Positions 3,571 to 64,000 of a stretch of DNA of 64,000 bases are shown in pieces. Numbering within the stretch: the first letter of the stretch is position 1; each line of letters opens with the position of its first letter. The position numbers and the translations under genes are program-made. Origin of the DNA: Squalus acanthias. Taxonomy: Eukaryota. The stretch covers positions 99,388,001 through 99,452,000 of the forward strand of contig CM059432.1 of assembly GCA_030390025.1 (NCBI GenBank). The letters run 5' to 3'. The notes beneath the pieces were generated by a model that was not told the DNA's origin, ran no database searches, and was given only the letters and a program-made list of their open reading frames with translations.

Positions 3571-4039
3571 GGGGGAAAAATTTGGTTGCTTTGTGCCTCC
3601 CGTTAGCGCCCGGGCGCAGAGCCGCCAACACCTCCCGCGAAATTCAGCGGGAGGTTAGCAGTGGCGGTAAACGTTAGCGCCCCGCGGCGCTGCGCCACTG
3701 GCGCTATCTTTGGTAGCGCCCCCTGACTTACCGCCGGATGCTATGTCCAACGGGGTCAGGGGGCCTACCTGCGGCCAGGGAGGTGCTAATTAAAGGCGAG
3801 GTGCCGGGCGGCCATTTTTGTTGCTGTCCGCCTGCCAGCACCTGCCCCCACTGCCGTCCCTGGCCTCCTGAGCAGCACCCCCTCGCAGCGCCCCAAGAAG
3901 GAAGCGGGGTGCTTCCAGTAGCGCCCCGCTTCCCTCTTGGGGCGCTACCAATGAATTTCGGCCGTGGGGGCGCTAATTTTTTCGAGTAGCACCTCGGCGA
4001 AGTTAATGCCCCAAAGGGGGCGCGATTCAATTTTTCCCC
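3571..4039 (-). mobile_element. Harbinger-type MITE family B (GC-rich, repeated tagcgcc motifs)
   Basis: TIRs gggggaaaaatt / aatttttcccc; the right end matches the terminus of the autonomous element at 60751. Confidence 0.8.
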
Positions 4040-11500: not shown

Positions 11501-11995
11501 GGACGAATGCTGTCATCCTGAGAGAGGACAGCAGGTTTGTGCTCCACAGAGCCACAGCCACTCCCCTGGCTCCACGCCTCAGCAATCCTAGTAATCTGTT
11601 GGAGAATAGATTTCTGGACTGCTGCGACACCCTGCAAGCCCCTGTTAACAGTGATATCCAGAGCCATGATGGCAGCAGTCTGAGCTTCCACTGCAGCACT
11701 CAGACGTTGGGTGGCTGTTGCTTGTGCTGCAATGGAAGCTGTGACATCGGCCATCCGATGCTGTATCATGGTTGGTTCCACAAGTGTGTTGATGGAGTTG
11801 GCCACCAGTTCAATGCTGGAAAGGATGGGCTCCAAGCTCTGCACAAAGCCCTGTGCCAAGTTAGTGCCGGGCTCCTCCATGCTCCTTGACATTGAACGTG
11901 GGCTTTCTGGCAGGCTTCCCAATGCACTAAGCATTTCATTGTGCATACCCATCAGCCTTCTTCTGTAGCCCACCCCAAGTGCTCATCTAAGTCCC
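8560..11995. mobile_element. Old internally deleted Harbinger: terminus ~8560-9058, transposase C-terminus (+, ~10820-11060) and Myb/SANT last exon (-, 11239-11973)
   Basis: VVVCCMLHNFAI plus a poly-E tract on +; the 11239 ORF is homologous to the 62028 ORF (AAHAEIVQS, QQPSTS); interrupted by the 9059-10817 element. Confidence 0.75.
9059..10817 (+). mobile_element. Non-autonomous Harbinger (~1.75 kb family), copy 1
   Basis: TIRs ggggggaatttt / aaaatccagccc; exact AAG TSD; Q/H-rich transposase N-terminus on + and SANT exon on - (10072-10848 ORF). Confidence 0.88.
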
Positions 11996-20379: not shown

Positions 20380-21725
20380 ACTGTGTCAGCTGTGGCACTC
20401 TTGCCTCTGGGTCAGAAGGTTCTGGGTTCACAGACCCACTCCAGGACTTGAGCACATAAAGCTAGGCTGCCACTCCAGTGCAGTGCTGAGGGAGTGCTGC
20501 ACTGTCAGAGATGCCATCTTTTGGAAAAGATGTTAAACCGAGGGCCCGTTTGCTCTCTCAGGTGGACGTAAAAGATCCCATGGCACTATTTCGAAGAAGA
20601 GCAGGGGAATTATCCCTGGGGGGAAAGATTCGGTTGCTTTGCACCTCCCGTTAGCGCCCTAAGCAAAGTAACTAGCGCCCGGGCGCAGCGATATTTGCAC
20701 CGCTCACGAAATTGACCAGACATTTTGCGGCAGTGCTAAATACTACCGTCACGATCTTCTGCGCCCGCAGATCGTGATGTCAGTAGCGTGCAATGCCCCG
20801 GTAGCGCCCCGGACCGGATATTGAATGGTGCCCCCTGCCTTACCGCCTGCCGCTAGCAACGACAGGTTGAGGGGAGCATTTTGCAGTCGGGAAGGGACTG
20901 AGGGAGTGCTATTTAAAGGCGACCGCTTCCTGCCTTTTTTCGTCGGCGACATTTTTGCACCACGCATTCTGAGAGAGAGAGAGAGACTTCTGGAGAGATT
21001 CAAAGCTGTTTGAAGGAGTTTTGGGGACTGAGCAGCACTTTGCAGGTTCATTTTGATTTGACCTTCCTTGCACTGATTTAGAAGAGACTTTGGGGGCTGC
21101 ACTCTGAGCTCTTTCCCTGTGCCTCTCTATTGTTCTTTCCAGCAGATTTGATGTACAGGTCTCTCCAGGCCGAGATTCAAGGCTGCAATGAGCAGAGTGT
21201 GGCTGGAGAGCAAGATCGACCCTCCCCTTTAAGAATTGGCCGGCGCCAGTGTGTCTGTGTTCCATTGCTGACTGACATCACATGAGCTTCGCCAGCGTTC
21301 TGAGGAAGCGCCTCGCTCCTCGGCGTTAGCGCCTTAAGAGAGGTGTGTAGTGCCTGATTTAGCGCTCCAATCACCTCCAGGGGTGATAGAAGCCATGTTT
21401 GCAGTTGGAAGCGATAATTAGCGGCAGGCGCTAAACTTTGCACCCGGCCGATAATTGCGCCCCAAAGGGGGCAATACCAAATTTCTCCCCCAGAGTGTCC
21501 TGGCCAATATTTATCCCTCAACCAAAATAACAAAAACAGATTATCTGGTTATTATCACATTGCTGTTTGTGGGACCTTGCTGTGCGCAAATTGGCCACCG
21601 TGTTTCCCACATTACAACAGTGACTCCACTTCAAAAAGTACTTAATTGGCTGTAAAGTGCTTTGAGACATCCGGTGGTTGTGAAAGGTGCTATATAAATG
21701 CAAGTCTTTCCTTTCTTTCTTTCTT
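20380..21725 (+). mobile_element. DeuSINE (SacSINE1-like) SINE split by a Harbinger derivative at 20619-21491
   Basis: tRNA-like head (gggttca..cccact), central gtaaaagatcccatggcactatttcgaagaagagcagggg, 3' tail aaaggtgctatataaatgcaag(tctt)n. Confidence 0.85.
20619..21491 (-). mobile_element. Internally deleted derivative of the autonomous Harbinger at 60751 (family B)
   Basis: The reverse complement of ~21150-21491 aligns along its length with 60751-61090; TIRs gggggaaagatt / aatttctccccc. Confidence 0.85.
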
Positions 21726-22599: not shown

Positions 22600-24833
22600 T
22601 GGGTCGGGGGCAGGTCCCGACCCCGCTGCTGGCTCCATCCCGCTCTGTAGAATTAATTCACGATGATTAGGCTTGTTAAGCCCGCCCGGCCAATTGAAGG
22701 AAGCGGGTCTGATGACGTCATTTGATGACACATCATCAGACGGTTTCCTTAAAAGGACCATGCGCAAATTGTTTTTGACAGTTGTGCTGTCAGTGTTCTA
22801 CAGTATTGAGGTGCTGCAAACACTGACAAGCACTGCATAGAGGTGCACGGCTACACCCAGGCTCTCCCTTGAGTCCCTCCATATGCTTATGGATGGAGTC
22901 ACAGCACACAGGGATGGAAGAGACCTCCCCAGGAGACCAACGCAGCCTAGTTACACAGGAGGGCACAAGCAGGGATGTTGTCAGGAGGACCAGGCTGCAG
23001 TGGCGCAAACCTTTCAATTATCTCAGTAGATCACAAAACATTACTGCAAAGCCACACTCAACCTCATCCTGCTGTGCTACTCATCACATCCCCATCACTC
23101 TGCCTTCCCTACCCTACTCCTGCACATCCTTACTCACACCAACTTACCTTGCACCTCCAACACACCCTCTCTATCTACTTATCACTTCCCCATCTCACTA
23201 GCCACACCTCACACTCACCCTCATCCTAGTCCAATCATACCAACTAACAACACACAAGGGTAGGCACTTGGGTGTTTTATGCAATGTTCATGTAAAGTTT
23301 CTGTTAATGTGGTGTCAAACATTGAAACCTTTATTTTGAACACTTTGTGTTCTTGGACAGATCTGTGTGCACCTTTGGAAGTGGCTTAGTGAGTTGCAGT
23401 GAATGGTGAGACATAATGGCCCAGAAATTGATCTCGCTCTGTTCCCGCGGGGGTAAGCCTTCCCCGCGATGTCTCACCTCGCTTATGCTTTTTCTGATCC
23501 AGCTCGCACGAACTTGATGTTCCAGACATCAGCTGTGCTGGGCTTGCGTATCCCAGCGGCGTAGTGAATTCGTGCGAGCTGTGGGATCACGTGACTCAGT
23601 TAGAGCCAATGGCAGCACACCATCTTCCATTCATAAGTCTCACAGCATGGCTGTGAGACTTATGAATCTTACACCCCCCCAAAATAACAGCTAAACCTCA
23701 ATTAAATTTAAAAAAAAACCATCACATTAATAAAATAAGTATAGTTAATTAAATTAACCATTTTAAATAAAAAATTAAATTTTTGAAAAAATTTAAAATC
23801 TTTTAAAAAGTTATAAAAATAAACTTACCTGTCTTTAAAGTCTATAAAAAAGATATACCTGTAAAAAAAAATTCAAAAAAATACTTAATTCACTACTTAC
23901 CTTCTTAAAAGCGGGTCTTACTCCTCCTTTTTACATTTCCAAAATCTTCCCTACTTACCTGCGCGTCCAAAGCATGAAGTGCACAGCGTGCGCGCAGCCT
24001 GTAGCGCGCACGCGATGCACCCAGGCCCCGCCCCCTTTTCGGAAGAGCAATTGCCGGTTTTCAGCGCATGCGCAGGGCATGCAGAAAACCGGCAATTGGA
24101 GTGGAATTACGCGAGAGTATGCAGTGCGTACTCTCGCGTCCCGGGATCAATTTTCGGCCCATTGGTACCCCCCGCAATGCTGATGAATGTAAAAGGAATG
24201 GCTTGGACATTGTAGGGATGCTTTATGGTGTTGGTGTGGGGTGGTGCCAACCTCGCGCATCATGTGGCAGCCAGGGTGTACAGCGTAAAGTTAAGTAAAT
24301 CTGGCCATGGTGAGTCCATCCCTGGTGTCCCAGGCAGCAATGTGGTCGGGTGCTGATGCCCTGTGTCCTGTGCAGCATCAGTTGATTGCGGAGAAGGTTG
24401 GTGTTGTTGCTGGTGCTGCTGGTGTGCCTGGTGCTGTTGGTGTTGGGGCTGATCGTGGTCAGATTCTGAGCGCCAAGGTGACAGAGTGTAAATGGTTCCC
24501 ATCCTGATGGAGTAGATAGCAGTTGAAGGTGAGATGACAGAAGCACTCTGTCAAAGGTGAGAGAGATTGCTGCAATGAGGTGAGCCTGGCTGGAGAGTTT
24601 GCTACAAAGACTTGCAGCCTGCATAAAGCACAATCTGTCTTCCAAGGGGAGAAACCAAAGAGTCCCAATTGCCTCCCCCGCCGCTGCGTGTTGTGTCTGT
24701 ACAGCGTTGGCAGACCCGGGATTCGGGAAAGTCGCGTAGCGGCGGGTCAACAGTGGGTTCCTGACCCACTGTATGTCTTTCCCACCCGACCCACCGCCAA
24801 ACGTGCTCGCTGACACCCTGAAAAATTCTCCCC
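22600..24833 (-). mobile_element. Non-autonomous Harbinger (~1.75 kb family), copy 2, containing a family A MITE
   Basis: Reverse-complement homologue of 9059-10817 and 37429-39218; right TIR aaaaattctcccc; left terminus not resolved. Confidence 0.82.
23418..24160 (+). mobile_element. MITE family A, copy 2
   Basis: Same 743-bp sequence; interrupts the host motif gagacataat/ggtacc; flanks aat/att. Confidence 0.92.
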
Positions 24834-29519: not shown

Positions 29520-30700
29520 AAAAAACTTGCATTTATATAGCACCTGTCATCCTTAGGTCATCTCAAAGTGTTTCACATCGAATTCATTGGCCCAGAAATT
29601 GATCTCGCTCTGTTCCCGCGGGGGTAAGCCTTTCCCGCGATGTCTCACCTCGCTTATGCTTTTTCTGATCCAGCTCGCACGAAATTGATGTTCCAGACAT
29701 CAGCTGTGCTGGGCTTGCGTATCCCAGCGGCGTAGTTAATTCGTGCGAGCTGTGGGATCACGTGACTCAGTTAGAGCCAATGGCAGCACACCATCTTCCA
29801 TTCATAAGTCTCACAGCATGGCTGAGAGACTTATGAATCTTACACCCCCCCAAAATAACAGCTAAACCTCAATTAAATTTAAAAAAAACCCCATCACATT
29901 AATAAAATAAGTATAGTTAATTAAATTAACCATTTTAAATAAAAAATTAAATTTTTGAAAAAATTTAAAATCTTTTAAAAAGTTATAAAAATAAACTTAC
30001 CTGTCTTTAAAGTCTATAAAAAAGATATACCTGTAAAAAAAAATTCAAAAAAATACTTAATTCACTACTTACCTTCTTAAAAGCGGGTCTTACTCCTACT
30101 TTTTACATTTCCAAAATCTTCAGTACTTACCTGCGCGTCCAAAGCATGAAGTGCACAGCGTGCGCGCAGCCTGTAGCGCGCACGCGATGCACTCCGGCCC
30201 CGCCCCCTTTTCGGAAGAGCAATTGCCGGTTTTCAGCGCATGCGCAGGGCATGCAGAAAACCGGCAATTGGAGTGGGAATACGCGAGAGTATGCAGTGCG
30301 TACTCTCGCGTCCCGGGATCAATTTTCGGCCCATTATTATTTAAAGTGTAGTTGCTGTTGTTATTTAGGCAAGTTGGCAGTCAATTTGCACAAGTCAAGG
30401 TCTCATAAACAAATGAGATGGCTGACCAGGTAATCTTCTTTTGGGGTGTTAGTTGAGTGAGAAATATTGGCCAAGATTCTGTTGTGGAATATTTTACATC
30501 ACAGGACTCTGGGAGAACTGCCTCTTCTTCTTCTAATAGTGTTGTGGAATCTTTTACATCACAGTTTAAAATGTAATCTGAAAGACAGCACTACTAACAA
30601 TACAGCACTCCCTCTGTAATGCACTGATCTTCCAGGGTAGGTTATGTGCTCAGATCCTGGAGCAAAGCTATGAACCCACAGCCTGCTGAGAGTGCTACAA
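29520..30700 (-). mobile_element. Old DeuSINE-like SINE split by a family A MITE
   Basis: Tail acttgcatttatatagcacc at ~29525; the body resumes after 30335. Confidence 0.7.
29589..30332 (+). mobile_element. MITE family A, copy 3
   Basis: Exact ATT TSD (29586-29588 and 30333-30335); near-identical to copy 2. Confidence 0.93.
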
Positions 30701-34840: not shown

Positions 34841-35486
34841 GGGCTAAAAATTGAGTATCGCCCCCTTTGGGGTGCTAACTTCGCCAGGACGCTACTTTTA
34901 GCACCCCGGAAAAATTACCACCCCCACGACGGAAATTGAGTGGTAGCGCCCCAAGAGGGAAGCGGGGCGCTACTGGAAGCACCCCGCCTCCCTCTTGGGG
35001 CGCTGCGAGAGAATATCACGGCGCTACGTGCCGCAGCGCCATGCGGGGCCCAGCTGGGCCCCCGGGGATCGGGAGTGCTGGCAAAAGAGCCCGGCACTCA
35101 AGAGAAGTGCCAGGCTCTTGGAGCGCAGCCGGCACGCCGCGGGGCGGGTAAGGAGGCCAGGGACGGGAGCGCAGGCAGATGCTGGCAGGCGGCCAGCAAC
35201 AAAAATGGCCGCCCCGCACCTCGCCTTTAAATAGCGCCTCCCCGGCCGCAGGTAGGCCCCCCTGACCCCGTTGGACATAGCGCCCGGCAGTAAGTCAGGG
35301 GGCGCTCCCGAAGATCGTGGCCGGGACGCTGCACACGGCGATGATGTCATCACCGGCGGCGCAGCGCCACAGGGCGCTACTGGTTAGCGCTGCCGCTAAC
35401 CTCCCACTGAATTTTGCGGGAGGTGTGGGCGGCGCCGCGCCCGGGCGCTAGTTGCGGGAGGCGCAAAGCAACCAAATTTTTCCCCC
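34841..35486 (+). mobile_element. Harbinger MITE family B
   Basis: gggctaaaaattgagt terminus like that at 60751; right end aaatttttccccc; inverted homologue of 3571-4039. Confidence 0.85.
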
Positions 35487-37344: not shown

Positions 37345-39390
37345 TGAGGGGAGGAGAAACATTTTCACACAGAGAGTTGTAATGCTGCGGAATTCACTTC
37401 CAGGATTTGTGGTTGAGGCAGAAACCATGGCCGAGATTTTCCGGGGAGTCAGCGGGCGCGATCGGTGGTGGATCGGGTGGGAAAGTGTTTTAATTTCCCC
37501 AGCAGGTCGCGACCCCGCTGTAAACCCGCCGCCACGCGCCTTTCCCGGTGTCGGGTCTCTCAGTGCTGAGCAGACCCAACACGCAGCGGCGGGGGACCCA
37601 ATTCAGGTAATTATGACCTTGTTTAGAGATCATTAAGAATACATTTGAGCTCACCTTTTGATTTTACATGCTTGCCCACGGGGTCCTCGCTGAATGTGGA
37701 CCGTGTCTGTGAAGCTGAGGCAGGAGTTCAGTGGCCATTGAATCAGCTGTTGAGTTGACAGCTTCAAATGTCAAGTAAAAGCTCCCACCTTACAGAGATA
37801 TCTTCCCTCAGCCACAAGCTCTTCCTCACTGCATTTCCACAACAGATTCACCATGCTGCAAGTCTTTACACAAGTCTCCATCCAGTCTGACCTTATTACC
37901 TCTCTCACCTTTGACAGATCACTTCTGTCATCTCTACTTCACCTGCCATCTATTCCATCAGGATGGGTGCCCTTTATACTCTCTCACCTTGTCCTCAGAA
38001 TCCCACCACAATCAGCCCCAACACCAGCAGCACCAGGCACACCAGCAGCACCAACAACAACACCGCCAACCTTCTCCGCAATCACCTGATGCTGCACAGG
38101 ACACAGGGCATCAGCACCCAACCACATTGCTGCCTGGGAGGTCAGGAATGGCCTCACCATAGCCAGATTTACTTCACTTGATTCTGTATACCCTGGCTGC
38201 CACATGATGTGCCAGGTTGGCACCACCCCACACCAACACCATAAAGCATCCCTACAATGCCCAAGCCATTCCTTTCACACTCATCACCATTGCGGGGGGT
38301 GGGGGGGGGGGGGCGGGTACCATTATGTCTCACCATTCACTGCAACTTACTAAGTCACTTCCAATGGTGCACACAAATCTGTCCAAGAACGCAAAGTGTT
38401 GAAAATAAAGGTTTCAATGTTTGATACCACATTAACAGAACCTTTACATGAACATTGCATAAAACACCCAAGTGCCTACCCTTGTGTGTTGTTAGTTGGT
38501 ATGATTTTCTCGGATGAGGGTGAGTGTGAGGGGTGGCTAGTGAGTTGGGGATGAGATAATATAGATAGAGAGAGATGGGTGGAGGTCCAAGGTAAGTTGG
38601 TGTGAGAAGGATTTGCAGGAGTAAGGTAGGGAAGGCAGAGTGATGGGGATGCGATGAGAGACACAGCAGGATAAGGTTGAGTGTGGCTTTGTACTAACGT
38701 TTCATGATCTACTGTGATCATTGAAACATTTTTGGCACTGCACCCAGGTCCTCCTGATGACATCCCTGCTTGTGCCCTCCTGTGCAATGTGCAACCAGTC
38801 TGTGTTGATCTCCTGGGGAGGTCTCTTCCACCCATGGGATGGGAAGAGGACCTCCCTGCGTGCTGTGACTCCCTCCATAAGCATATGGAGGGAGTCATGG
38901 GAGAGCCTGGGTGCAGCCCTGTGCCTTTGTGCAGTGCTTGTCAGTGTCTGCAACAGCTCAATGCTGTAGAACACTGACAGCACAAATGTCAAAATAAAGT
39001 TGGCCATGGTCCTTTTAAGGAAACTGGCTGATGATGCGTCATCAAATGACGCCACCAGACCCACTTTCTCTAATTGGCCAGGAAACGCGCTGGGCGGGCT
39101 TAACAAGTTCCATCAAGGGAAAGTCAGTTTACAGAGCAGGCTGGAGCCAACAGCGGAGTCGGGACCAGCCGCCAACGTCACCCACCATGGACCCACCGAG
39201 TTTAGTAAAATCCTGGCCTATGTCAATATTCAAGTTTGGATTGGATAGGATGATGAAGGAAAAGGGGTTGGATTGATATGGGAAGAGGGTAAATGAACTA
39301 TTTGCTCGCATGGAGGGTAAACACTGACTCAAACTGGTTAGGCTGAATGGCCTGTGTCAATGTTGTAACTTCCATGTATTTCTATGCATT
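37345..39390 (+). mobile_element. CR1 3' fragment split by the Harbinger element at 37429-39218
   Basis: RRNIFTQRVVMLRNSLP before the insertion; FKFGLDRMMKEKGL and 3' UTR after it. Confidence 0.75.
37429..39218 (+). mobile_element. Non-autonomous Harbinger (~1.75 kb family), copy 3
   Basis: TIRs ggccgagatttt / aaaatcctggcc; flanks cat/tat; same internal junction as copies 1 and 2. Confidence 0.88.
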
Positions 39391-41157: not shown

Positions 41158-42196
41158 TTTGACTTTGCAAGGATTCAGCTGACACCACAGAGATTCACAT
41201 TAAAGCAACTGTTGGATTTTTATATTGTAGAACAGCACAACAAGAACAAGAACAACTTACATTTGTATAGCCTTTAATGTAGTTAAAATGTCAGAAGGCG
41301 CTTTGCAGAATTGTATCCCAGAATTGTTTGTTTGACTCAGCAGCACCTGTTTATTGATGGAGGTGTTTTGCATGAAAAACAGATGGAAAACTGACATAAT
41401 TTGCTGGGCAATGATGAACAAATGTACCAGAGCCAAAAGTACTGAGCAAATTTCTATAAACCTTGAGTTTATAATAATGAGGATATATGCTAGTCAGATA
41501 GTTTAGAAAGAGAAAAACTACAGACTAACAAAGCATATGGTTTCCCTTGTGCTTGGCTTGTCTGCTGCATATTGCAAACTCACAGTGCATTTGTTACTTG
41601 TCAAGGACATACTTTTGGCACTGTTTCCTATTAACAATCATTGATGTAGCTTGTGGATCTTCATTTTATTTGGAATTTTGGCTGTATTTAAGTGCTCTGC
41701 TGTAATAATTCCCTCAAAATAATGGTTAAGCAATATGATAAAAGCAATCTATGGGGGCGATTTTCCCAGCCCCGAGGAGTCGACTTTGGAGGCCGGACAG
41801 TTGGCAAAATCGCAAAACATGAGGGCGGGTTTGGAACCCACCGCCGCGCAATTTTGCCGGAGGTGGGTTTCATGGGTGTGATTCGGTCCCGCCTCCATCA
41901 GTCGGGAGAGGTAGTTGAGACCCTTAAATAGTCGTTAAGGGCCTCTATAATCCTATTTTGACAGGCCTTTGTTATTTTGCTACATTTTGCACGTTTTGCA
42001 CGACCCTCCTAAACCACGCCAGCTAATCCTGGCGGGTTGACAAGTGGGTGGCCTCCTCACAGCTGCAGCTCCACCATTAAAACGGAGCTTTCATCAGGGA
42101 GCAGTTGCAGGTGGCAGAACTTTTGTTCCACAGATCTTTCAGCACTTTTAGCAGGTCTACCGAAGTCGGAGGTGCTGCAGCTTCTATCTCTCAACT

Positions 42197-43477
42197 GTGG
42201 GACCTCCTTGGAAGACCCTCTCCCTGCTTGGACTGAGCGCTTCCCCAACGGAGGTATCTGCCAGCAGCTTGGAAACCATTTATTTCCTTTCATCATGGAC
42301 CTCAGATTCGGATGAGGAGCAGCCATGGAAGCAGCGGAACCAGGCAGCTCAACAGCGACAGCAACAGGAGCCCCAACCTCCTGCTCACCCACCTGATGCT
42401 GCACAGGGCAGAAGGCGCCAGTGCATGGAAGCACCTCGCTGCAGGAGATACCCCCCTCTCAGGGTTTACAGACAGAGGATGAGCTACCTCAACATGAGTG
42501 AGCCGCAGTGCCAAAGGAGCCTGAGACTTTCGCGAGAGGTTGTCTGGGAGATCTGCGGACTGCTGCACCAACACCTGGAGCCCAGAGCAGCGGGTGGACA
42601 CCCCTTACCAGTGGCTGTCAAAGTCACCACTGCACTCAACTTTTTTGCCTCAGGCTCCTTTCAGGGATCATCAGCAGACATCAGCGGCATCTCCCAGTCG
42701 GCCGCCCACAGTTGCATCACGCAGGTTACCGATGCCCTTTTCGCAAAGGTGCACAATAACATCCACTTCTCAAGTTTAACCGCGCGTTCAGTTGGCTTTG
42801 CAAATATGGCAGGCTTGCCAATGGTGCAGGGCGTCATAGACTGCACACATGTGGCCCTTAGGGCACCCCATCACAACCCAGCTATCTTTGTCAACCGCAA
42901 GAGCTTCCACTCCCTCAACGTACAGCTGGTGTGTAACCACAAAAAGGAGATTTTGCATGTTTGCACCAAGTTCTGTGGTAGTTGCCATAACTCGTTCATC
43001 CTGCGGCACTCTAGTGTTCCTCCGCTTCTCAATCCGCCAAACCAACTTAACGGATGGCTCCTTGATGACAAGGGCTACCCCCTGAAAAAGTGGCGAATGA
43101 CACCGATCAGGAGGCCAGCTAACGAGGCTGAGGAGCGCTACAACGCCAGCCACATTTCGACCAGGTCCATCATCGAGCAAACCATTGGCTTGCTGAAGAT
43201 GCGATTCCTTGACAGATCAGGTGGATCCCTGCAGTATTCAGCAGCCAGGGTCTCCAGAATGGTCGTGATCTGCTGTGCACTGCACAACATGACACAGCGT
43301 CGTGGCTTGCAGCTTCCTGATGAGCAAGTGGCTCAGTTCATAGCCTCCTCAGATGAGGAGGAGGAGGAGGAGGAGGAGGACCGAGTGGCAGCGTATCTAC
43401 CAGCAGCAGCGGCATCACGCGGGCACATGGCTGCCCGTGATGCAAGGGATGCACTCATCCTGGCCAGATTTGCATAG
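42197..43477 (+). pseudogene. Harbinger DDE transposase (HARBI1-like); open frame but with small deletions and substitutions
   Basis: [39 protein letters not shown] in place of GSCHD and short in-frame deletions relative to the sister copies. Confidence 0.9.
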
Positions 43478-44102
43478 GTTGCCCATTGTGGCACATGTGC
43501 TTGGCTCCTTCTTAACACATGATAGACAATGGACATGACTCTCTGGCCTCCTTTCACTCTGACCACCAACCTGACCACGTAAGTGTTGCGGAGCCCGCAA
43601 TGTAGAGCTGCCTAAGCTGAAATAACATATGCCATCACGCCAACAGTTTGCCATCACCTAATTTTAATACATGGCGGTAATTTTCTGACGTCCAAGGAGG
43701 TGGATTTGGAGGCAGGAAAGGCAGGAAAATCGGAAACAATGAGGGCAGGTTCGGAACCCGCCTCCAACCCGCCTCCACGGAATTTTGCCGGTGCCGGTTT
43801 TGCAGGGCGAGAAACGGTCCCGCCTCCAGCAGGCCAGAGAGCTTGTTAAGAGGCTTAAATGCTCGTTAAGGGCCTCGCTAAGCCTATTTTGAGAGGGCCT
43901 CGTGATGTTTAGACCATTTCGGCGTGTTCGATGACCCTCCTAAACCACGCCAGCTAATCCTGGTGGGTTGACAAGTGGGTGGTCTCCTCACAGCTGCAGC
44001 TCCAACATTAAATTGTTTATTTCATCAGGGATTAGTTGCAGGTGGCAGAACTTTGCTTTAAAAGGTCTTTGAGCACTTTTAGAAGGCCTTCCGAAGTCGG
44101 AG

Positions 44103-45587
44103 GTGCTGCAGCTTGAATCTATCAACTGTGGGACCTCCTTGGAAGACCCTCTCCCCGCTTGCAATGAGCGCTTCCCCAACGGAGGCATCTGTAAGCAGCA
44201 TGGGAACCATTTATTTATTTCACCATGGACCTCAGATTTGGATGAGGAGCAGCCACGGCAGCAGCAGAACCAGGCAGCTCAGCAGCAACAGCAGCAGGAG
44301 CCCCAACCTCCTGCTCAGCCACCTGATGCTGCACAGGGCAGAAAGCGCTAGCGCATCGAGGCACCTCGCCGCAGGAGATACCCCCAACAGAGGGTTTACA
44401 GACAGAGGATGAGCTACCTCAACATGAGTGAGCAGCAGTGCCAAAGGAGGCTGAGACTTTCGCGAGAGGTTGTCCGAGAGATCTGCGGACTGCTGCAGCA
44501 AGACCTGGTGCCCAGAGGAATGGGTGGATACCCCTTACCAGTGGCTGTCAAAGTCACCACCGCACTCAACTTCTTTGCCTCAGGCTCCTTCCAGGGATCA
44601 TCAGCAGACATCAGCGGCATCTCCTTGTCGGCCGCCCACAGTTGCATCACGCAGGTTACTGATGCCCTTTTCGCTAAGGCCCACAATTACATCCAGTTCT
44701 CAAGGGATCAAGCAAGTATAACCGCCCATTCGGTTGGCTTTGCAAATATGGCAGGCATGCCAATGGTGCAGGGCGTCATAGACTGCACACAGGTGGCACC
44801 CCATCACAACCCAGCTATCTCTGTCAACCAAAAGGGCTTCCACTCCCTCAAAGTACAGCTTATGTGTAGCCACAAGAAGGAGTTCTTGCATGTTTGCGCC
44901 AATTTCTGTAGTAGTTGCCATGACTCTTTCATCCTGCGGCACTCTAGTGTTCCTCCGCTTTTCAATCCGCCAAACCAACTTAATGGATGGCTCTTTGGTG
45001 ACAAAGGCTACCCCCTGAAGAAGCGGCTAATGACGCTGATCAGGAGGCCAGCTAACGAGGCTGAAGAACGTTACAACGCCAGCCACACTTTGACCAGGTC
45101 CATCATCGAGCAAACCATTGGGTTGTTGAAGATGCGCTTCCGTTGCCTTGACCAATCAGGTGGAGCCCTGCAGTATACACCATACAGGGTCTCCAGAATG
45201 GTCGTGGTCTGCTGTGCACTGCACAACATCGCACAGCGTCATGGCTTGCAGCTTCCTGATGAGCAAGTGGCTCAGTTCCAGCCTTCCTCAGATGAGGATG
45301 ATGAGGAGGAGGAGAATGTGGAGGCTGAGTAGGAGGAGCATCTGGAGCAGGAGGAGGAGCAGAAGCATAAGGAGGAGGAGGAGGATGAGGAGGCTGAGGA
45401 GGAGGAGGAGGAGGAGGAGGATGAGGAGGAGGAGGAGGAGGAGGAGGATGAGGAGGAGGAGGAGGAGGAGGAGGCGCAGGAGGAGGAGCAGGAGGCGCCG
45501 GTGTATCGACCAGCAGCAGCGGCAGCACACGAGCACATGGCTGCCTGTGATGCAAGGGATGAACTTATCCTGGCCAGATGTGCATAG
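44103..45587 (+). pseudogene. Harbinger transposase pseudogene (stop codons at ~44349 and ~45330)
   Basis: ORF 44409-45332 contains IDCTQV, GDKGY, IIEQTIG and CCALHN. Confidence 0.88.
45291..45495. repeat. (GAG)n-rich expansion in the transposase acidic tail
   Basis: About 200 bp of imperfect GAG/GAT triplets, versus about 27 bp in the outer copy. Confidence 0.9.
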
Positions 45588-46309
45588 GTTGCCCAAGTTG
45601 GCACATGTCCTTGGCTCCATCTTAAGACATCATTAACAATGGACATGACTCTCTGGCCTCCTTTCACTCAGGCCACCAACCTGACAACGCAAGTGTCGCG
45701 GAGCCCGCAATGTGGAGCTGCCGAAGGCGAAAGAACAGATGCCATAACGCCAACATTTTGGCATCAAATCATTTTAATGCTTTCCAACATGAATGGCATT
45801 TCATCAATACACAAAAACATTCACCCAATCTGCACACAGATCTGGAGGTTATATCCCTTGCCAGCTGTACCCATACAGCCTTGGTTTCTTTGGGAGGCCT
45901 CTTCCTCCCAGATGAGTGGACGAGCACCTTCCTGCTAGCTGTCACCCCCTCAAACAACATTTGCAGTGCCTCATCCGAGAGCATTGGTGAGGCCCTTGCC
46001 TTGGAATTGGACATAGTGGCTTCTCAGAATATGTTGCAGGTGGTGCAGCATAGGCAGAAATCCTGTGGAATGATCCAAGGCAGCAAGAAGCCATAAAATC
46101 AGGCTGGAAAAGTGATGTCAGCATGGGGCGAGTTTCATACCAAAACACTAGTTGACCAAGGGCATCCCACACCTCTGAAATCAAGTGGCCAATCAGGGAA
46201 AATTGCAATTTTTTGACAACTATCAGTGGAGGCGGGTTTCAAACCTACCCAAACCGAAACCCGCCTCCATCTCGCCTCCAGTGGGAAAATCGCTCCCACA
46301 CAGGGATGG

Positions 46310-46530
46310 CATTTCAGCAATAAACAGAAACAATCACCCAATCTGCACACAGATCTGGAGGTTATATCCCCTGCCAGCTGGACCCACACAGCCTTGGTTT
46401 CTTTGGGAGGCCTCTTCCTCCCAGATGAGGGGAAGAGCACCTCCCTGCTAGCTCTTGCCCCCTCAACCAGCATACCCGGCGCCTCATCAGAGAACCTCGG
46501 GGAGGCCCTTGCCTTGGAGCTGACCATTCT
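46310..46530 (-). pseudogene. Truncated Myb/SANT N-terminus of the outer Harbinger
   Basis: MVSSKARASPRFSDEAPGMLVEG...REVLFPSSGRKRPPKETKAVW. Confidence 0.75.
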
Positions 46531-47189
46531 TCAAGGAGATAAAAGTTTGGAGGTGGTGCAGCATCGACCAAAAACCAGTGGAATGAGCCAAGGCAGCAAA
46601 CAGCCCTTAAATGAAGCTGGATAAGTGACGTCAGCAGAGGCGAGTTTCAGTCCCAAAAGACTAATTGGCCCAGGGAACCCACACATCTGAAATTAACTGG
46701 CCAATGAGGGGAAAATCGCAAATTTTTCCCACCCGACAGTGGAGGCGGGTTTGGAACCCAACCAAACCGAAACCCGCCTCCAATGGGAAAATCGTCCCCA
46801 TGTCTATAAAAAGAGAGAAAATTGCTAATGTAATTTGAAAAATTCCTTCAGTAAAATTCTTTTAAATGCCTAATTTACTTTGCATCAAAAAAAATCAAAG
46901 CTATGAAAATCTCAAGTTAAATGTAAGTTACAATTTTTCTTTTTACCATATTACAACCAAGAAACTACTATTGGTGATAAAAGTTTTAAACACTTAACAT
47001 GTGTGTATGATATTTCTTTGTCTGCTATTTTATTGCCAGTGTTAACCCACTTATTTTAAATGTGCTAAAGCTTCCACTAAAATAGCAGACAAAGGAATAT
47101 TGCCCACTAAAGTAACCAACAATCAGTTTTGCACTTATAAGAGGATAGCTGATTCATTTTTTGAACTCTTCATTTACTTGCTGACCTAA

Positions 47190-49620
47190 TCAAATTACCA
47201 CCAATGGTGTGGAGGACGAATTCTTGGAATGCATGCAAGATGGTTTCCTGGATCAGTATGTGGAGGAACCAACCAGGGAACAGGCTATTCTGGATCTGGC
47301 ACTGTGTAATGAGAAAGGGCTAATCAATAATCTTGTGGTAAAAGGGCCTTTAGGGCATAATATGATTGAATTTTATATTAAGTTTGAGAGTGATGTAATC
47401 CAATCTGAAACTAAGGTCTTCAATCTAAACAGAGGAAACTACAAGGGTATGAGGGACAAGTTGGCCATGGTAGATTGGGAGACTGCACTGAAAGCTATGA
47501 AGGTGGACATACAATGGCTAACATTCAAGGAAATAATGCATAATTTGCAACAAACATATATTCCTCTAGGGTATAAAAACTCAAAAGGAAAAATGATCCA
47601 ACCATGGCTAACAAAAGAAATTAAAGCTAGTATTAAGTAAAAGGAGGAAGCTTATAAAGTTGCCAGAAAAAGCGGTCAGCCTGAGGATTGGGATCTTTTT
47701 AGAAATCAGCAAAGGGAGACCAAGAAATTGATAAAGAAATGGAATATGAGCACAAACTAGCAAAAAATATAAAAACGGATTGTAAAAGCTTCTATAGGTA
47801 TGTGAAAAGGAAAAGACTGGCGAAGGTGTAATAATGTAGGTCCTTTACAGTCAGAGACGGGAGAATTTATAATGGGGAATGAGGAAATGGCAGAGAAATT
47901 AAATAACGGAGGAAGACACAAAAAACCTCCCAGAAATACGAGAAAACCAAGGGTGTGACGAGAATGAAGAACTTAAAGAAATTATTATTAGTAAAAAAAC
48001 AGTACTAGCAAAATTAATGGGACTAAAAGCCGATAAATCCCAAGAACCGGATGACCTACATCCTAGGGTTTTGAAAGAGGTGGCCATTGGAATAGTGGAC
48101 GCATTGGTTGTCATCTTCCAAAATTCTATAGATTCTGGAATGGTTCCTGCAGATTGGAGGATAGCAAATGTAACCCTGCTATTTAAGAAAGGAGGGAGAG
48201 AGAAATCGGGGAACTACAGATCTGTTAGCCTCACATCAGTAATTGGGAAAATGCTGGAATCTATTATAAAGGATACAATAACTGGACGCTTAGAAACTAA
48301 TAGTAAGATTGGGCAGAGTCAACATGGATTTATGAAAGGGAAATCCTGTTTGACAAACCTATTGGAGTTCTTTGAGGATGTAACTAGTGGAGTAAACAAA
48401 CGGGAACCAGTAGATGTGGTGTATCTGGATTTTCAGAAGGCCTTCAATAAGGTCCCACACAAGAGGTTGGTGAACAAAATTAGGGCACATGAAATTGGGG
48501 GTAATATACTAGCATGGATTGAGAATTGGTTAACAGACAGAAAACAAAGAGTAGGGATAAACGGGTCTTTTTCAGGATGGCAGGCTGTGACTAGTGGGGT
48601 ACCGCAAGGATCGGTGCTTGGGCCCCAGCTATTCACAATCTATATCAATGATTTGGATGAGGGGGCTAAATGTAACATTTCAAAATTTGCTGATGATACA
48701 AAGCTGGGTGGCAGTGTCAGTTACGAAGAGGATGTGAAGAGGCTTCAAGGGGATCTCGACAGGCTCAGTGAGTGGGCGAGAACATGGCAGATGGAATATA
48801 ATGTGGATAAAAGTGAAGTTATCCACTTTGGTAGAAAAAACAGAAAGGCAGAGTATTTCCTAAATGGTGAAAGATTGGGGAATGCAGATGCTCAAAGGGA
48901 CCTGGGTGTCCTTGTACATGAGTCACTGAAAGTGAATGTGCAGGTGCAGCAAGCCATTAGGAAGGCAAATGGTATGCTGGTCTTCATTACAAGAGGATTT
49001 GAGTACAGGAGTAAAGAAGTCTTACTCCAATTATATAGGGCCTTGGTGAGACCACACCTGGAGTACTGTGTACAATTTTGGTCTCCTTACCTAAGGAGGG
49101 ATATACTTGCCATAGAGGGAGTGCAACGAAGGTTCACGAGATTGATTCCTGGGATGGCGGGACTGTCGTATGAGAAGAGATTGAGTAAACTAGGCCTGTA
49201 TTCTCTTGAATTCAGAAGAATGAGAGGAGATATCATTGAAGCATACAACATTATTACAGGGCTTGATAGGGTGGATGCTGGGAGAATATTTCCCTTGGCT
49301 GGGGAGTCTAGAACCAGGGGCCACAGCCTCAAGATAAAGGGTAGGACATTCAGGTCTGAGATGAGAAGAAATGTCTTCACACAGAGGGTGGTGAATCTTT
49401 GGAATTCTCTACCCCAGAGGGCTGTGGAGGCCCAGTCATTGGGTATATTCAAAACAGAAGTCGATAGATTTCTGACTAGTAAGGGCATCAAGGGATATGG
49501 CGATAGGGCCGGTGAATGGAGTTGAGGCAGAAAATCAGCCATGATCTCATTGAATGACGGAGCAGGCTCGAAGGGCCGAATGGCCTACTCCTGCTCCTAT
49601 TTCTTATGTTCTTATGTTCT
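47190..49620 (+). mobile_element. CR1 LINE, 5'-truncated, with a long intact RT segment (48017-49525)
   Basis: NYRSVSLTS, LDFQKAFNKVPH, GVPQGSVLGP, KFADDTKL, YGDRAGEW; (ttcttatg)n tail. Confidence 0.96.
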
Positions 49621-57823: not shown

Positions 57824-59415
57824 GGCTGCGATTTTCTGTTCGGTGTCGGGATGGGTGCGGGTCAGCTGGTTTCCAGATTCTGGTCCCGCCCCCAGCTGCC
57901 TCCGCTCCACAGACGTGATTTTCCCTTGATCGGCCTTGTTAAGCCCGCCCTGCTTAATGACCAATTAACAGGAAGCGGGTCTGATGATGTCATTTGATGA
58001 TGCGTCATCTGCCAGTTTCCTTAAAGGGACCATGCACAATTTTATTTTGACAGTTGATTTCTCAGTGTTTGACAGCATTGAGGTGCTGAAAACACTGACA
58101 ATCACTGCACAAAGGTGAACTCTTGCACCCAGGCTCTCCAATGACTCCCTCCATATGCTGGAATAGATGGCAGCTGCAGGTGAGATGACAGAAGCGATCT
58201 GTCACTGGTGAGAGAGGTTTTCCCAATGAGGTGGCACTGGACATATAGTTGGATTTAAAAACTTGTAAGCTAAAGAAATCTGTATGGCCCGTATTTACCA
58301 ATGCCTACAGGTGTGTATGAGCTGTGTACACACCAGTAGGGACATCGGAAATGCCGGTTTCAAGCATGCGAAGCGCATGCGCTGAAAACCGGCATTTCCG
58401 ATCTGTCAAGAATCCTGCAGAAAGGCCTCGGCGGGTGGAGAGTTCCGCTTTCTGCAGAACCTCCGCCTGCTGAAAACCCTTAGAAATCTTACGCCTGGTA
58501 AAAGTAGGTGTAAGGCCTGCTTTTACCAGCATAAGAGTTTAAAAAAGTAAAAAAATATTTTTTTTCACTCATTTATAATTTAAAAATACTTTTAAAAAAG
58601 GTAAGTTTATTTTTAGCCCTGTAAAAAACCTTAATTATTTTTTCAAAAAATTAAATTTTTGTTTAAAATATTTAATTTAATGTAATTTTAACTCATTTTA
58701 AAAGCATGATGGTTTTTAATTTTTTAAAAATGTTTTAGTGTCTTTTTTCAGTGAGCCCCATTCATACTTTTGACAGGTCTATCTGTCAAAAGTATGAAGT
58801 GGGATTCCTTTCTTTCATTGGCTCGCCTGGCCCACGTGATCCCAGGAATGCTTGCAAACCGCATGCGCCCCTGGGATATGTGGGCCCTGCGCATTTTGAC
58901 TGTGGAGAGGCCCAGCATCGGAAGTGTCCAGACCTCGGGAGCCCTCAGGTAAGAGCATAGATTTTCTTCCAATAAGAGGTATCCGCACGCAGGAAACCTC
59001 CTATCGGAAATTACGGGCCTATGCAGTAACCAACATTTTCTTTGCTCTGAAACTCACCATGTGTAACATTGCATCTTTCACACCACTTCTGCAGCTGTCA
59101 TCTTTTCACAAACATTAGACCAGACTCACAACACGCCACACTTACCTGGTGTGTTGTCCAGACGTGGTGAAACCCAACCCAGAAGCGGTAAAATCGAAAA
59201 ACAGGCTGAACACTACTGACAAGCACCTGTTAATAGGCAGGTAATTGCCTTTAATCCGTTTCCCACCGCTAGGTATCGGGTCCATTCGCAAATCGGGGAC
59301 CAGACACTTGGGAAGGCTGTTTGGAGGCGGGTTGATGGCGTGTTCGTGACCCGCCGTCAATCAAAAGGACTTTAACCTCTGACCCGCCTCTCTGAGCGCC
59401 GGCAAAATCACAGCA
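57824..59415 (+). mobile_element. Non-autonomous Harbinger containing a family C MITE
   Basis: Ends ggctgcgatttt / aaaatcacagc; TTT on both flanks. Confidence 0.75.
58286..59019 (+). mobile_element. MITE family C
   Basis: TIR ggcccgtattt / aattacgggcc; exact TAT TSD. Confidence 0.9.
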
Positions 59416-61107
59416 TTTGTGTCCTCCTCATAGTTTACTTTCCCACCTAGCTTTGTATCATCAGCAAACTTGGATACATTACACTCGGTCCTTTCATCTA
59501 TGTCATTAATATAGATTGTAAATAGCTGAGGCCCTAGCACTGATCATTGCGGCACCCCACTAGTTAAAGCTTGCCAACCTGAAAATGACCTGTATTTCCC
59601 TATGCTCTGTTTTCTGTCTGTTAACCAATCCTGTAGCCATGCTAATATATTTCCCCCAACCCCATGAGCCATTATCTTAAATAACAACCTTTTATGTGGC
59701 ACCTTATCAAATGCCTTTTGAAAATCCAAATATACTACATCCACTGGTTCCCCTTTATCTACCCTACTAGTTACATCCTCAAAAAACTCTAACAAATTTG
59801 TCAAAAACGATTTCCCTTTCAGAAAACCATGTTGACTCTGCCTTATCATATTATGATTTTCTAAGTGCCCTGTTACCACTTCCTTAATAATGGATTCCAG
59901 CATTTTTCCAGTGACTGATGTCAGGCTAACTGGCCTGTAGTTCCCTATTTTTTCTCTCCCTCCTTTCTTGAATAATGGGGTTAAATTTGCTACCTTCCAA
60001 TGCGCTGGGACTGTTCTCGAATCAAGGGAATTTTGGAAGATCACAACCAATGCATCCACTATCGGTGCAGCCACCTCCTTTAGAACCCTATGATGTAGGC
60101 CATCAGGTCCAATTGATTTGTTGGCTTTTAGTCGAATTAGTTTCTCAAATATTTTTTCTCCACTGATATTCATTAATTTAACTTTGTCACACTCATTAGC
60201 CCCTTGGTTCCCCACTATTTTTGGTATCCTTTTTGCGTTTTCTATTGTGAAGACAGATACAAAATATTTGTTTGAAGTCTACACCATTTCCTTATTCCCC
60301 ATTCTCTTGTCTCAGCTTCTAAGGGACCAATGCTTACTTTTGCTATTCTCTTCATTTTTACCTACTTGTAGAAGCTCTTACAGTTTGTTTTTACATTTCT
60401 TGCTATTTACTCTCATGTTATAGTTTCTCCCTTTTTATCAATTTTTTGGTCAACCTTTGCTGGTTTCTAATGCTCTCCCAATCCTCAGGGTTACTACTGT
60501 TCTTCGCAACATTATAAGCCTCTTCTTTTAATCTAATACTATCCTTAACTTCTTTAGTTAGCCACGGGTGGATCACATTTCCCATGGAGTTTTTAATTCT
60601 CAATGGAATGTATATTTGTTGAGAATTTTGGAATATTTCTTTAAATATTTGCCACTGCTCATCTACCATTATATCTTTTAATCTAATTCCCCAATCTACC
60701 TTAGCCAACTCACCCCTCATATCTATGTAATTAGTTTTATTTAAGATTAAGGGGTAAAAATTGAGTCGCGCCCCATTTGGGGCGCAAATATCGTCCGCGC
60801 GCAAATATTAGCGCCTGGCGCTAATTATCGGCACTGACAGGAAACTTCACTTTTACCGCCCCGGGAGGTGAGTGGAGCGCTAAATTAGGCGCTGCACACC
60901 TCTCTTAAGGCGCAAAGGCCTAGGAGTGAGGCGCTAACTCAGCGCACGAGCGCAGCGCAGCTGCTGCCAGTTAGCGCGGGAACACAGACACACTGACGCC
61001 GGACACTTCTTAAAGCGGGGGGGGCCACTTGCTCCCCAGCCACACCCTGCTCATTGCAGCCTTGAATCTCAGCCTGGAGAGACCTGTAATCCATTTTGCT
61101 GCCAAGA

Positions 61108-63071
61108 ATGGAGAGGGTGAGAGAACGCGCTCATCGCTTCACCGAGCGGGCCTTGGATGCTCTGGTTGACGCAGTGGAGCGCAGACGATGCATGCTGTTC
61201 CCAGAGAGTGGCAGGAGGCCTTTGCCACGCGAGTTCAGAAGAGTGTGGAGGGAGGTGGCTCAGAGCGTCTCCTCCAGGAGCATGGTGCCCAGGACCCATG
61301 TCCAGTGCCGCAAGAAGTTCAACGACCTCACTCGGGTCGTCAGGGTGAGTGGCTTTTTCTCAATACCTCTCCATCCCTCCATCTCAACCTCACTCTATGG
61401 CCAGAGGGTCTTAAAACCCCAATGCACAACACTCATCCAACACCTATGGCCCTTTCATCAAACACACACACACATTCCACACTTTGCATACAGTAAGGGC
61501 TATTCACCTATGGGAGGCACATCAGGCAAGACCATGGCTGCATATTGTAAGGGCTATTCACCTATGGGAGGCACATCAGGCAAGACCATGGCTGCATATT
61601 GTAAGGGCTATTCACCTATGGGAGGCACATCAGGCAAGACCATGGCTGTATATTGACTCAGATGCTGTCCTTTTTCTTGCAGGCTAAGCTGGCTCATAAT
61701 CGGAGACAGCAGCAACGGACGGGTGGAGGGCGGCTTCAGCTGCAACCCCTCAGCGATCTGGAGGAGCGCGTCCACAGGATTGTGGCAAGCCGGGTGATCG
61801 GTCCCGTCGCCACTGGAGACGCCGACCCCGTTGTGGACAGCAATGGTAAGGTCATCACCTTTTTGTCCTCTGTCCTTCCACTTGTCCCTCACAATACCAG
61901 CCTTTGACACTTTCAATCCAACTTGCTAACTCGCTGCACTTATTCCTCCCTTACTGCCACCCTGTCCTCACGCTAAAGCCACTCTTGTACCTCCCTGCTT
62001 TCAGATGGTGATTCACCAGCTGAGGAGATGGTCCCTGAAGCTGCCACTGGGAGTGATGCTGCAGCTGAGGAGGAAGAGGAAGCCGGAGCATCAGTGCCAC
62101 CCTCTCCCGAGGAAGCCCATGGCCACACTGGGAACACGCCTTCCCCGGAGGGGAGCAGGGGGGAAGGGGCTGATGATGGTGAAGTTCCAGGACCCAGCGG
62201 GCTGCAGCAACGCCATGGGGGGGGGAGGGAAGAACGGGGGAGCAGGGGGGAAGGGGCTGATGATGGTGAAGTTCCAGGACCCAGCGGGCTGCAGCAACGC
62301 CATGGGGGGGGGAGGGAAGAACGGGAGCCTTCTCCCCAGAGGGAGAGTATGCCAGACACTCCTAATGCAATGGACGCAGAGGAGGAGCGGATGATTGCAG
62401 AAATGAACAGCCAGGCGGTGGTCATGCACACTGAGCTCATGGGTGCAGTGGGAAGGGTGCCCGAATGCATTGAGGCACTGGCAAGGAGTGTGGAGCACTT
62501 CGCTGTAGCACAGGCGGATGCCACACTAAAGCTTACTGCTGCAATTCAGTCACTGGCTGCCAGGAACCCATCTGAGCCTGCTCTCATGCAGACTCAGATT
62601 GAGGCCACGCGAGCACTGACTGCTGCCATCCTCGATGGTTCGTGCACATGTCCCCGGGGCTGTCACCGCGCCGCAGCAGGCCAGCAATCTGTTCTCAGGC
62701 AAATTGCTCCGGATGCTGAAGTGCTGCCCCGTGGGAGTGCCAGTGTGTCGGGCGAGCAGGGAGTTGCTGTCCTCTCTCACGATGACAGCATTCCTGCTGC
62801 CAACACTGTCACTTCTCCACTGCACTTGCCACCGCCTGTAGGACAGACTGCTGCCGCCCATGCAGAGTTGGTGCAGTCTGCAGCCGGGCCCTCCAGGCCC
62901 AGAAGTGGTCGAGGCCGGCCTTCAGGGGCATCTGCAGTGTCAGGGTCTGACAAGCAGCAGCCTTCCACCAGCCTTGCTGCAGCCACTGAGGTCCCATTAC
63001 GGAGGAGCAGTAGGGTTAGAAGGGGGGAAGTGCGCAAGGGAAGGAGATCACCCTCGAAGGGCAAAAAGTAG
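61108..63071 (+). CDS. Harbinger Myb/SANT-like DNA-binding protein, three exons (61108-61344, 61683-61845, 62005-63071), 488 aa
   Basis: RAHRFTERALDALVDAV...WREVAQSVS...RTHVQCRKKFNDL; canonical GT-AG introns with matching phases (0 and 1); no stop codons after splicing. Confidence 0.88.
61492..61653. repeat. 54-bp tandem repeat x3 in intron 1
   Basis: gtaagggctattcacctatgggaggcacatcaggcaagaccatggctg repeated three times. Confidence 0.92.
62150..62326. repeat. In-frame tandem duplication in the Myb/SANT exon 3
   Basis: GSRGEGADDGEVPGPSGLQQRHGGGREER occurs twice. Confidence 0.92.
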
Positions 63072-63365
63072 GAGGTGTGCCAAAATGCTGGTCATTTTTT
63101 TATTAAAGGCCGAGGTTCATGGCCCAACTTTTGTTTAGTGTTTTGGACATTATCTCCAGGTTGTGAGAACCAGTTATGTTATTGACTGTTTTTTGGTGTT
63201 TATTTCTATGAGTTTGTCATGAGGAATTGACACACACAGAGTTTGTACAATAAATAAGTTTCTGTATTCAAAATATACATGGCTGGTGGTTGGAATTATT
63301 GGTGCCTTGGCCGGCTTAGGGGTTGCGTGCTGGGTTGATTCGTGTTTGTAGCACTGGCAGGGGTC

Positions 63366-64000
63366 CTAGAAGCGGCTTGCTATTAGTCGTTGACGGACGG
63401 CCCTTGCAGTTTGACCATTGTGGGCCGCCCTCCTGCCTTGGTGCTGCTGCTGATCATCGTCCTCGGCCTGTTCCTCCTCTTCCTCCTCCTCCTCTTGTGG
63501 TGCTGCAAGGCCTGGTGGCATTGGCTGCGTCCTGAGGATTGCCATGTTGTGCAACATGCAGCACACCACTACGAATTTGGAAACTTGCTCAGGCGAGTAC
63601 TGCAGGGCTCCTCCGGAATGGTCCAGACAGCGGAATCGTTGTTTGAGCACGCCGATTGTGCGCTCAATAATGTTCCTCGTTGCTTGTTGGCTTTCCTGGT
63701 ACCGCAGCTCAGCAGGGGTGTTTGGCGCACGGAGCGGTGTCATCAGCCAGGTGCTCAATGCGTACCCCTTGTCCCCCAGAAGCCAACCAACTGGCTGATG
63801 CGGTGCCTCGAAAATTTCTGCCACAGTACTCTGGCGCAGGATGAAAGCATCGTGGCAGCTGCCCGGATAGTGGGCATTGACAGCGAGAATCACCTGTCTG
63901 TGGTCACAGACCAACTGCACATTCAAGGAATGGAACCCCTTTCTGTTCCGGAACTCCTCTGCATTCTCTCGCGGAGCACGCAAAGCCACATGCGTGCAGT
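63366..64000 (-). CDS. Harbinger DDE transposase, C-terminal part (5' portion outside the window)
   Basis: (D)[65 protein letters not shown]; all motifs canonical. Confidence 0.93.
   Translation of the reverse strand, partial: CTHVALRAPRENAEEFRNRKGFHSLNVQLVCDHRQVILAVNAHYPGSCHDAFILRQSTVAEIFEAPHQPVGWLLGDKGYALSTWLMTPLRAPNTPAELRYQESQQATRNIIERTIGVLKQRFRCLDHSGGALQYSPEQVSKFVVVCCMLHNMAILRTQPMPPGLAAPQEEEEEEEEQAEDDDQQQHQGRRAAHNGQTARAVRQRLIASRF

Follow-up and report, generated by a model that had tools for sequence, protein, structure and literature searches.

A two-gene PIF/Harbinger element, apparently well preserved in its visible part, in Squalus acanthias

Can a DNA transposon in a shark chromosome still be complete and mobile, and has it given rise to the smaller elements that surround it? 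The question is raised by the right-hand end of a 64,000-nucleotide stretch of Squalus acanthias DNA (GenBank assembly GCA_030390025.1, contig CM059432.1, positions 99,388,001 to 99,452,000, forward strand; hereafter the window), where an earlier, sequence-only reading had proposed an apparently intact PIF/Harbinger element, a candidate active master of the nearby MITEs (miniature inverted-repeat transposable elements). Our analysis indicates that the copy at 60751-64000 is probably a well-preserved two-gene cut-and-paste element of the PIF/Harbinger type, truncated on its right side by the window edge. Its visible part looks intact and recently copied, and present mobility seems unlikely; the copy appears to be one young member among many, and the view that the family, or the MITEs of the window, arose from it is not supported.

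The proposed two-component organization was recovered by Pfam matches, which identify a Myb/SANT gene and, convergent with it, a DDE transposase. On the plus strand, exon 1 of the Myb-like gene (61108-61344) encodes a Myb/SANT trihelix domain of 79 aa (Myb_DNA-bind_5, PF13873, E = 1.3e-9), exon 2 (61683-61845) adds an extension running from KLAHN to RTGGG that is collinear in the homologues P0125 and P0126, and exon 3 (62005-63071) continues to the stop through an acidic linker, a helical segment and a basic tail, with a homologous tail at 11242-11982 in the window. Joined, the exons make 1,467 nt, or 488 aa and a stop codon, and contain no internal stop, as the sequence-only reading had claimed for its three GT-AG exons. 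Both predicted introns are bounded by GT and AG and carry a pyrimidine tract: intron 1 (61345-61682; 338 nt, phase 0), which contains 3.2 copies of a 54-bp unit at 61485-61655, and intron 2 (61846-62004; 159 nt, phase 1). Retention of either would run into a stop, the read-through frames ending at 61656 and 61907, and the sole plus-strand ATG in 60751-61110 is that at 61108. Exon 3 also carries a perfect in-frame tandem duplication of 87 bp (29 aa; 62150-62325, plus strand), whose two units are 100% identical and which serves below as a subfamily marker.

The splice model rests on homology rather than RNA. A search with exon 1 found 74 relatives among cluster representatives and matched 1 of 158 longer proteins; a search with just exon 3 scored 8,000 candidates and gave no homologue. 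Among the 71 homologues that match both models, the spliced protein scored more than 5 bits better for 54 and the unspliced one for none. Homologues are collinear across the first junction, P0125 and P0126 align gap-free across the second, and P0125 (Pristiophorus japonicus) aligns at 36% identity over residues 5-485 without a gap at either, which favors splicing of a three-exon gene. A contig of one sequencing run (X15, see below) continues from exon 1 into intron 1, with no listed joint at the predicted introns, and as this run is possibly DNA it says nothing either way; the window's other Myb exon-1 remnants are too decayed to confirm the donor site.

The transposase lies on the minus strand (63366-64000), where its C-terminal 210 codons remain open up to the window edge, and the match of the frame 63369-63998 to DDE_Tnp_4 (PF13359, E = 5.9e-37) spans model positions 3-158 of 158. 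Roughly 130-150 N-terminal codons should lie beyond the window, as estimated from the consensus of the homologue alignment. The codon of the first catalytic Asp straddles the edge, and its missing base can be read (by eye) from one contig of run X1 that belongs to a different copy; the other two catalytic residues, D76 (63771-63773) and E112 (63663-63665), lie inside, with 35 residues between them. The sequence-only reading had described every visible motif as intact, and this holds for YPGSCHD, GDKGY and IIER. It fails for the conserved YNxxH motif, which reads YQxxQ through N101Q (63696-63698) and H104Q (63687-63689). In an alignment of 120 homologues, position 101 is N in 106 of 115 filled rows and position 104 is H in 100 of 119, and these two substitutions are the sole departures from columns conserved at 80% or more in residues 1-160. 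The same Q/Q pair occurs in one of the 120 homologues, P0119, from the ribbon worm Lineus longissimus, and a subfamily of the sawshark Pristiophorus has Leu in place of the His of this motif. YQxxQ also recurs in the family: run X2 shows no difference from the window copy over 63509-64000. The enzyme may tolerate this change, or the change may be a lesion. With the transposase profile no solved structure was found, and a fold search returned nothing at E ≤ 0.001, just weak integrase cores, so that the role of N101 and H104 cannot be read from structure.

The left boundary is well defined. The flank reads AGAT/TAA (60744-60750), and a GGGG opens the element at 60751, directly 3' of the TAA (60748-60750, plus strand), which we presume to be the left copy of a TWA target-site duplication (TSD) whose right copy lies beyond the window. 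Up to that base runs the frame of a CR1 long interspersed nuclear element on the minus strand (59300-60750, where 59300 is an unmapped edge), an open reading frame 2 (ORF2) fragment with a reverse transcriptase match (RVT_1, E = 3.1e-15) that is decayed by stops and frameshifts and ~74% identical to the window's CR1 at 47437-48732. The element thus starts after TAA with CR1 sequence up to that base, as had been proposed, and the claim that it interrupts the CR1 is visible from one side only. In sequencing runs the flanks switch at 60749-60751, in one contig of X2 and in two contigs of X15, and in the latter two, whose flanks are foreign, the alignment to the window reaches back to 60749. This change of flank, together with similarity to the ends of two MITEs, marks the left terminus (60751-60782, plus strand), which comprises the TIR (terminal inverted repeat) and the start of the subterminal region; the length of the TIR is not fixed because the partner right end lies beyond the window. 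Between terminus and start codon, the subterminal region (60783-61107, plus strand) presumably holds the promoter and 5' untranslated region of the Myb-like gene, and is ~80% identical to a sister copy at 21105-21491. At the other end of the gene, 63072-63365 is common to the 3' sides of both convergent genes and contains putative poly(A)-type hexamers on both strands (plus strand at 63102 and 63249; minus strand at 63099 and 63199).

Near-identical relatives are present in sequencing runs. Twenty runs, from 11 studies and with six organism labels, contain 0.40-0.91 of the element's sampled words, none of them listed as an RNA run, and four of 24 runs (X1, X2, X11 and X15) were compared piece by piece. 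In X1, 21,310 pieces aligned (a count that includes the 350-bp CR1 flank) and covered 30 of 30 bins, with 4,802 at ≥99% identity, 7,381 at 95-99% and 9,127 at 90-95%; the 90% filter excludes short contigs with clustered differences, and variant shares from this run were left unused. The family is thus large, multi-copy and mixed in age. Seven pieces of X2 cover 2,976 bp with 9 differences (0.3%), a body 99.7% identical to the window copy, and left ends on foreign flanks occur in both X2 and X15, in keeping with the proposal of a young element with close relatives. Mean depth in X2 falls to 2.59 in 60641-60760, against 37 in the next bin, and X11 likewise gives little or no cover of the CR1 flank, which fits insertion at other sites without proving it.

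A commoner type of the element is represented by X11 and X15. The five longest well-covered pieces of X11 carry 35 differences from the window copy in 1,801 bp (1.9%), and six pieces of X15 carry 36 in 1,474 bp (2.4%; three low-depth X11 pieces and two X15 pieces were left out of these counts). Since most listed variants are common to both runs, at 1.9% and 2.4% from the window copy, the latter belongs to a derived subfamily, which speaks against the label of master element. Contigs of X2 end where the 87-bp repeat begins and ends, as expected if two units are present, and in X11 a loose end at 62240 would suit one unit only; most likely, the derived subfamily transposed after the duplication had arisen.

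Between the window copy and the X11/X15 type, 8 of the 12 differences in exon 1 are synonymous, against an expectation of 23% (p = 0.002; 40 of 148 variant rows underlie the selection counts), an excess to be expected where a lineage depended on its DNA-binding domain. The 12 differences, in 237 bp, form two patches (61169-61203 and 61300-61314); over the first 170 bp of intron 1, X11 shows none and X15 one (p = 0.002 and 0.01 against exon 1). These clusters are possibly gene-conversion patches from a sister subfamily, and the contrast between exon and intron hints at mosaic subfamilies. At the mutation rate reported for the epaulette shark, 7e-10 per generation (confidence interval 1.4-14.1e-10; PMC10587355), the 0.3% divergence of X2 corresponds to ~2 million generations, or 11-24 million years for assumed generations of 5-11 years, with the caution that the rate belongs to a different shark species and that its interval covers a tenfold range. 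Youth by sequence thus does not imply present activity. CpG content was tried as a clock and set aside, as diverged MITEs still have observed-to-expected ratios of 0.84-0.88.

Several points weigh against a well-preserved and recently copied element. The window edge cuts off some 40% of the transposase together with the right TIR and the second TSD, so that the two genes and many copies are found while the left TAA and GGGG start document one side of the insertion only. In visible coding sequence the Myb frame is intact and the transposase is open over its 210 visible codons, yet N101Q and H104Q sit on the predicted helix 95-121 that carries the catalytic E112 (model predicted local distance difference test score 88). 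Differences in exon 3 look neutral (3 of 14 synonymous, in the listed rows only), and the listed differences in the transposase (2 of 5 synonymous) are too few for a selection test. The X2 contig that carries the left end on a foreign flank shows 5 differences in 76 nt and could derive from a sister element, which makes its connection to the 99.7% body putative; from the contigs listed, a second locus for that body is accordingly presumed. Moreover, 0.3% is near the allelic diversity of one shark (pi 0.002, as given in PMC10587355), so that X2 could in principle be the same locus.

How far do these observations bear on present activity? That the copy or its subfamily is fully autonomous, natively intact and still transposing in living sharks, with YQxxQ tolerated, agrees with 698 visible codons free of stops and frameshifts, with the identity of the two 87-bp units, and with a YQxxQ form that X2 shares in an identical stretch (63509-64000). 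Record 23 of X15 spans Q101 and Q104 with five differences, three of which lie elsewhere, too few to restore both residues (by eye), and the ribbon-worm protein and the sawshark His-to-Leu change show related departures. We nevertheless think it unlikely: the 9 differences from X2 translate into the long interval given above, no identical pair and no polymorphic insertion are in evidence, and the 5' part of the transposase lies beyond the window. The transposase might instead be dead, through a 5' lesion or through YQxxQ itself, and the copies moved in trans by the enzyme of a sister family. Such a pseudo-autonomous subfamily would account for two departures from conserved columns on the catalytic helix; sister families with similar ends are present in the window and in the runs, and the Ping and Pong proteins, 62% and 77% identical, cross-mobilize according to PMC2836001. 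Against this, the enzyme retains all other columns of ≥80% conservation in residues 1-160, the terminal branch of the transposase is not long (0.27, against a median of 0.48) and the Q/Q pair recurs in an unrelated animal, and we regard this explanation as doubtful.

Two further explanations fare worse. That the three-exon gene is intact and that synonymous differences are in excess in its exon 1 might point to a domesticated, single-copy host gene pair like HARBI1 and NAIF1, and domestication does occur in this group, a related Myb cluster (P0129) being kept at 90% identity across rays. The transposon terminus that follows TAA in the CR1, the foreign flanks joined to it at that boundary, variant X1 pieces by the thousand and the want of any orthologue at 90% identity (best transposase 55-69%, best Myb 36% overall) make it extremely improbable, and the candidate was rejected on its copy number, its terminus and its lack of close orthologues. 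Nor is the window copy at all likely to be the master that produced the window's MITEs, as the sequence-only reading had suggested. The ends of two MITEs (3571-4039 and 34841-35486) match the element's left end, to which the comparison was confined, at 26 of 30 nt, which makes mobilization in trans conceivable; yet the similarity ends after 32-65 bp, the two are 79-82% alike, and their flanking triplets are mismatched (TTA/ATA and AAA/ATT). The most homogeneous MITE family (2628-3376, 23417-24163 and 29588-30335; ~750 bp, 93-98% identical) has ends unlike the element's (19 and 15 of 30 nt), and at least three other Harbinger lineages have left coding remains in the window. Termini are all that the element and the MITEs at 3571-4039 and 34841-35486 have in common, and the claim that it drives the MITEs of the window was not upheld. 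The 750-bp MITEs are the youngest-looking in the window and have apparent AWT-type flanking triplets.

The preferred reading, a well-preserved young member of a multi-copy family, can be set among relatives of the transposase. At E ≤ 1e-20, 260 of 357 candidates are relatives, the best named HARBI1-like, and the top matches, 55-69% identical, come from Pristiophorus and Heptranchias, where they are modeled as 'putative nuclease HARBI1'. In a tree of 46 rows, hand-picked from 120 listed matches, the transposase is grouped with proteins of Pristiophorus and Heptranchias in a set of 16 rows (support 95/89), nested in a 26-row set (100/95) whose 22 species-labeled rows are all sharks or rays; of the other four, three come from the window and one lacks a species label. 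We therefore consider it likely that the element comes from a native shark Harbinger radiation; horizontal transfer, the other origin considered, is unsupported given this nesting. The nearest database relatives of both proteins are the 'putative nuclease HARBI1' and 'MYPOP-like' models in RefSeq and UniRef from Pristiophorus japonicus and Heptranchias perlo, which are just 55-69% (transposase) and up to 36% overall (Myb) identical to the window's proteins, and which carry host-gene labels although many look like transposon copies.

Among characterized systems, the PIF/Harbinger group within the PHIS superfamily is described by Han et al. (2015; PMC4482050) as combining a DDE transposase and a Myb/SANT protein with a TWA duplication, an average length of ~4.1 kb, TIRs that are usually <60 bp and start with A or G, and a helix-turn-helix in the N-terminal part of the transposase. 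The window element resembles it in its two genes, G-starting terminus, TWA-type triplet on the visible side and compatible size, and differs in having YQxxQ instead of YNxxH. NuwaI makes a CWG duplication and NuwaII has a C/TNA/G target (PMC4482050); membership in either was rejected on the left flank, which reads T/TAA (one insertion only). Zebrafish Harbinger3_DR (Sinzelle et al., 2008) was rebuilt from a consensus, according to PMC2836001 and PMC9179366. It shares the two-protein design and serves as our model of mechanism, while the window copy, compared with it by description rather than by sequence, looks natively open where visible, unlike a consensus reconstruction. The target of Harbinger3_DR is of the CWG type.

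The mechanism that we propose is taken by analogy from the literature on such systems (PMC2836001; PMC9179366). As in Harbinger3_DR and rice Ping, the spliced Myb-like protein would bind the termini and bring the DDE transposase into the nucleus, and the transposase would then excise the element and paste it at a TWA triplet, as in Harbinger3_DR and Ping/Pong. In the history that we infer, a late subfamily marked by the in-frame 87-bp duplication would have split by ~2% from the commoner type and then transposed; the window copy would have landed in an already decaying CR1, and at shark mutation rates too little time would have passed for it to collect stops. Both the order of these events and the age are reconstructed from the comparisons above.

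Intact vertebrate Harbingers are not rare, given that Han et al. count 88 potentially active families with intactness of both frames as their criterion (PMC4482050), that Harbinger-Snek of sea kraits has 269 intact copies in L. colubrina and one in L. laticaudata after an abundant, recent expansion (PMC8437027), and that a newt shows a recent Harbinger burst with expression (PMC5741667). Harbinger-Snek has non-autonomous derivatives and was acquired by horizontal transfer from marine invertebrates (PMC8437027); it and the window element are both abundant vertebrate Harbingers, the one transferred horizontally, the other with a transposase nested in sharks and rays. For cartilaginous fish, the available text of Etchegaray et al. 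(2022; PMC9179366) reports no Harbinger in elephant shark and calls for checks of others, that of the whale shark paper (PMC8455134) just lists the superfamily as present, and the main text of the Greenland shark preprint contains 0 occurrences of 'harbinger'. Among the papers listed by our literature search, none treats shark Harbingers that are young or intact; the search did not extend to repeat libraries and supplements, in which the family is possibly catalogued.

That a shark has several Harbinger lineages, and a subfamily that is young and well preserved, partly answers the question of Etchegaray et al. (2022), and the window copy is possibly of interest as a natively intact shark element. 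If complete and mobile, it would supply excision assays with a vertebrate Harbinger in native form, and a group of low diversity with polymorphic markers. If it is still transposing, vertebrates would have a functional two-component DNA transposon for which no reconstruction is needed, and transposition would count as a measurable origin of new variation in sharks, a lineage whose mutation rate is among the lowest measured. Otherwise, its description amounts to routine annotation, and to the reminder that recent activity in sharks does not necessarily follow from an intact frame and 99.7% identity.

The window holds other Harbinger remains. A decayed element of another branch occupies 41751-46800; its transposase region is tandemly duplicated, with copies 85% alike, stop-to-stop frames of 441 and 326 aa and damaged motifs, and Myb exon-1 remnants occur twice at 45835-46497. 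The two decayed transposases (42152-45329) fall in a different branch of the tree from the window element's enzyme. A further family (9066-10812, 37436-39213, 22603-24658 and 57916-58159) retains Myb exon-1 remnants in copies that are 82-87% alike, one of them split by the 750-bp MITE at 23417-24163. The 3' halves of a sister element lie at 10816-11982, with a Myb tail (36% to exon 3) and a transposase tail in convergent layout. At 20619-21491, an 873-bp non-autonomous sister element sits in a repeat resembling a short interspersed nuclear element and is ~80% identical to the 5' 380 bp of the Harbinger copy at 60751; its type is seen in the runs as loose ends at 60940 and 61088. Apart from these, a CR1 ORF2 fragment at 47903-49522 is open for 540 codons.

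Two groups of related proteins were met during these searches. The P0129 cluster is a Harbinger-type Myb protein that is 90% identical across the ray genera Hypanus, Mobula and Hemitrygon, with a relative in Narcine (P0122), and is likely a domesticated gene. A 348-aa transposase-like protein (P0055, P0065, P0072, P0075 and P0082) has short branches across coelacanth, lizard, crocodile, birds and echidna, its bird clusters having >200 members, and looks like a conserved domesticated Harbinger transposase.

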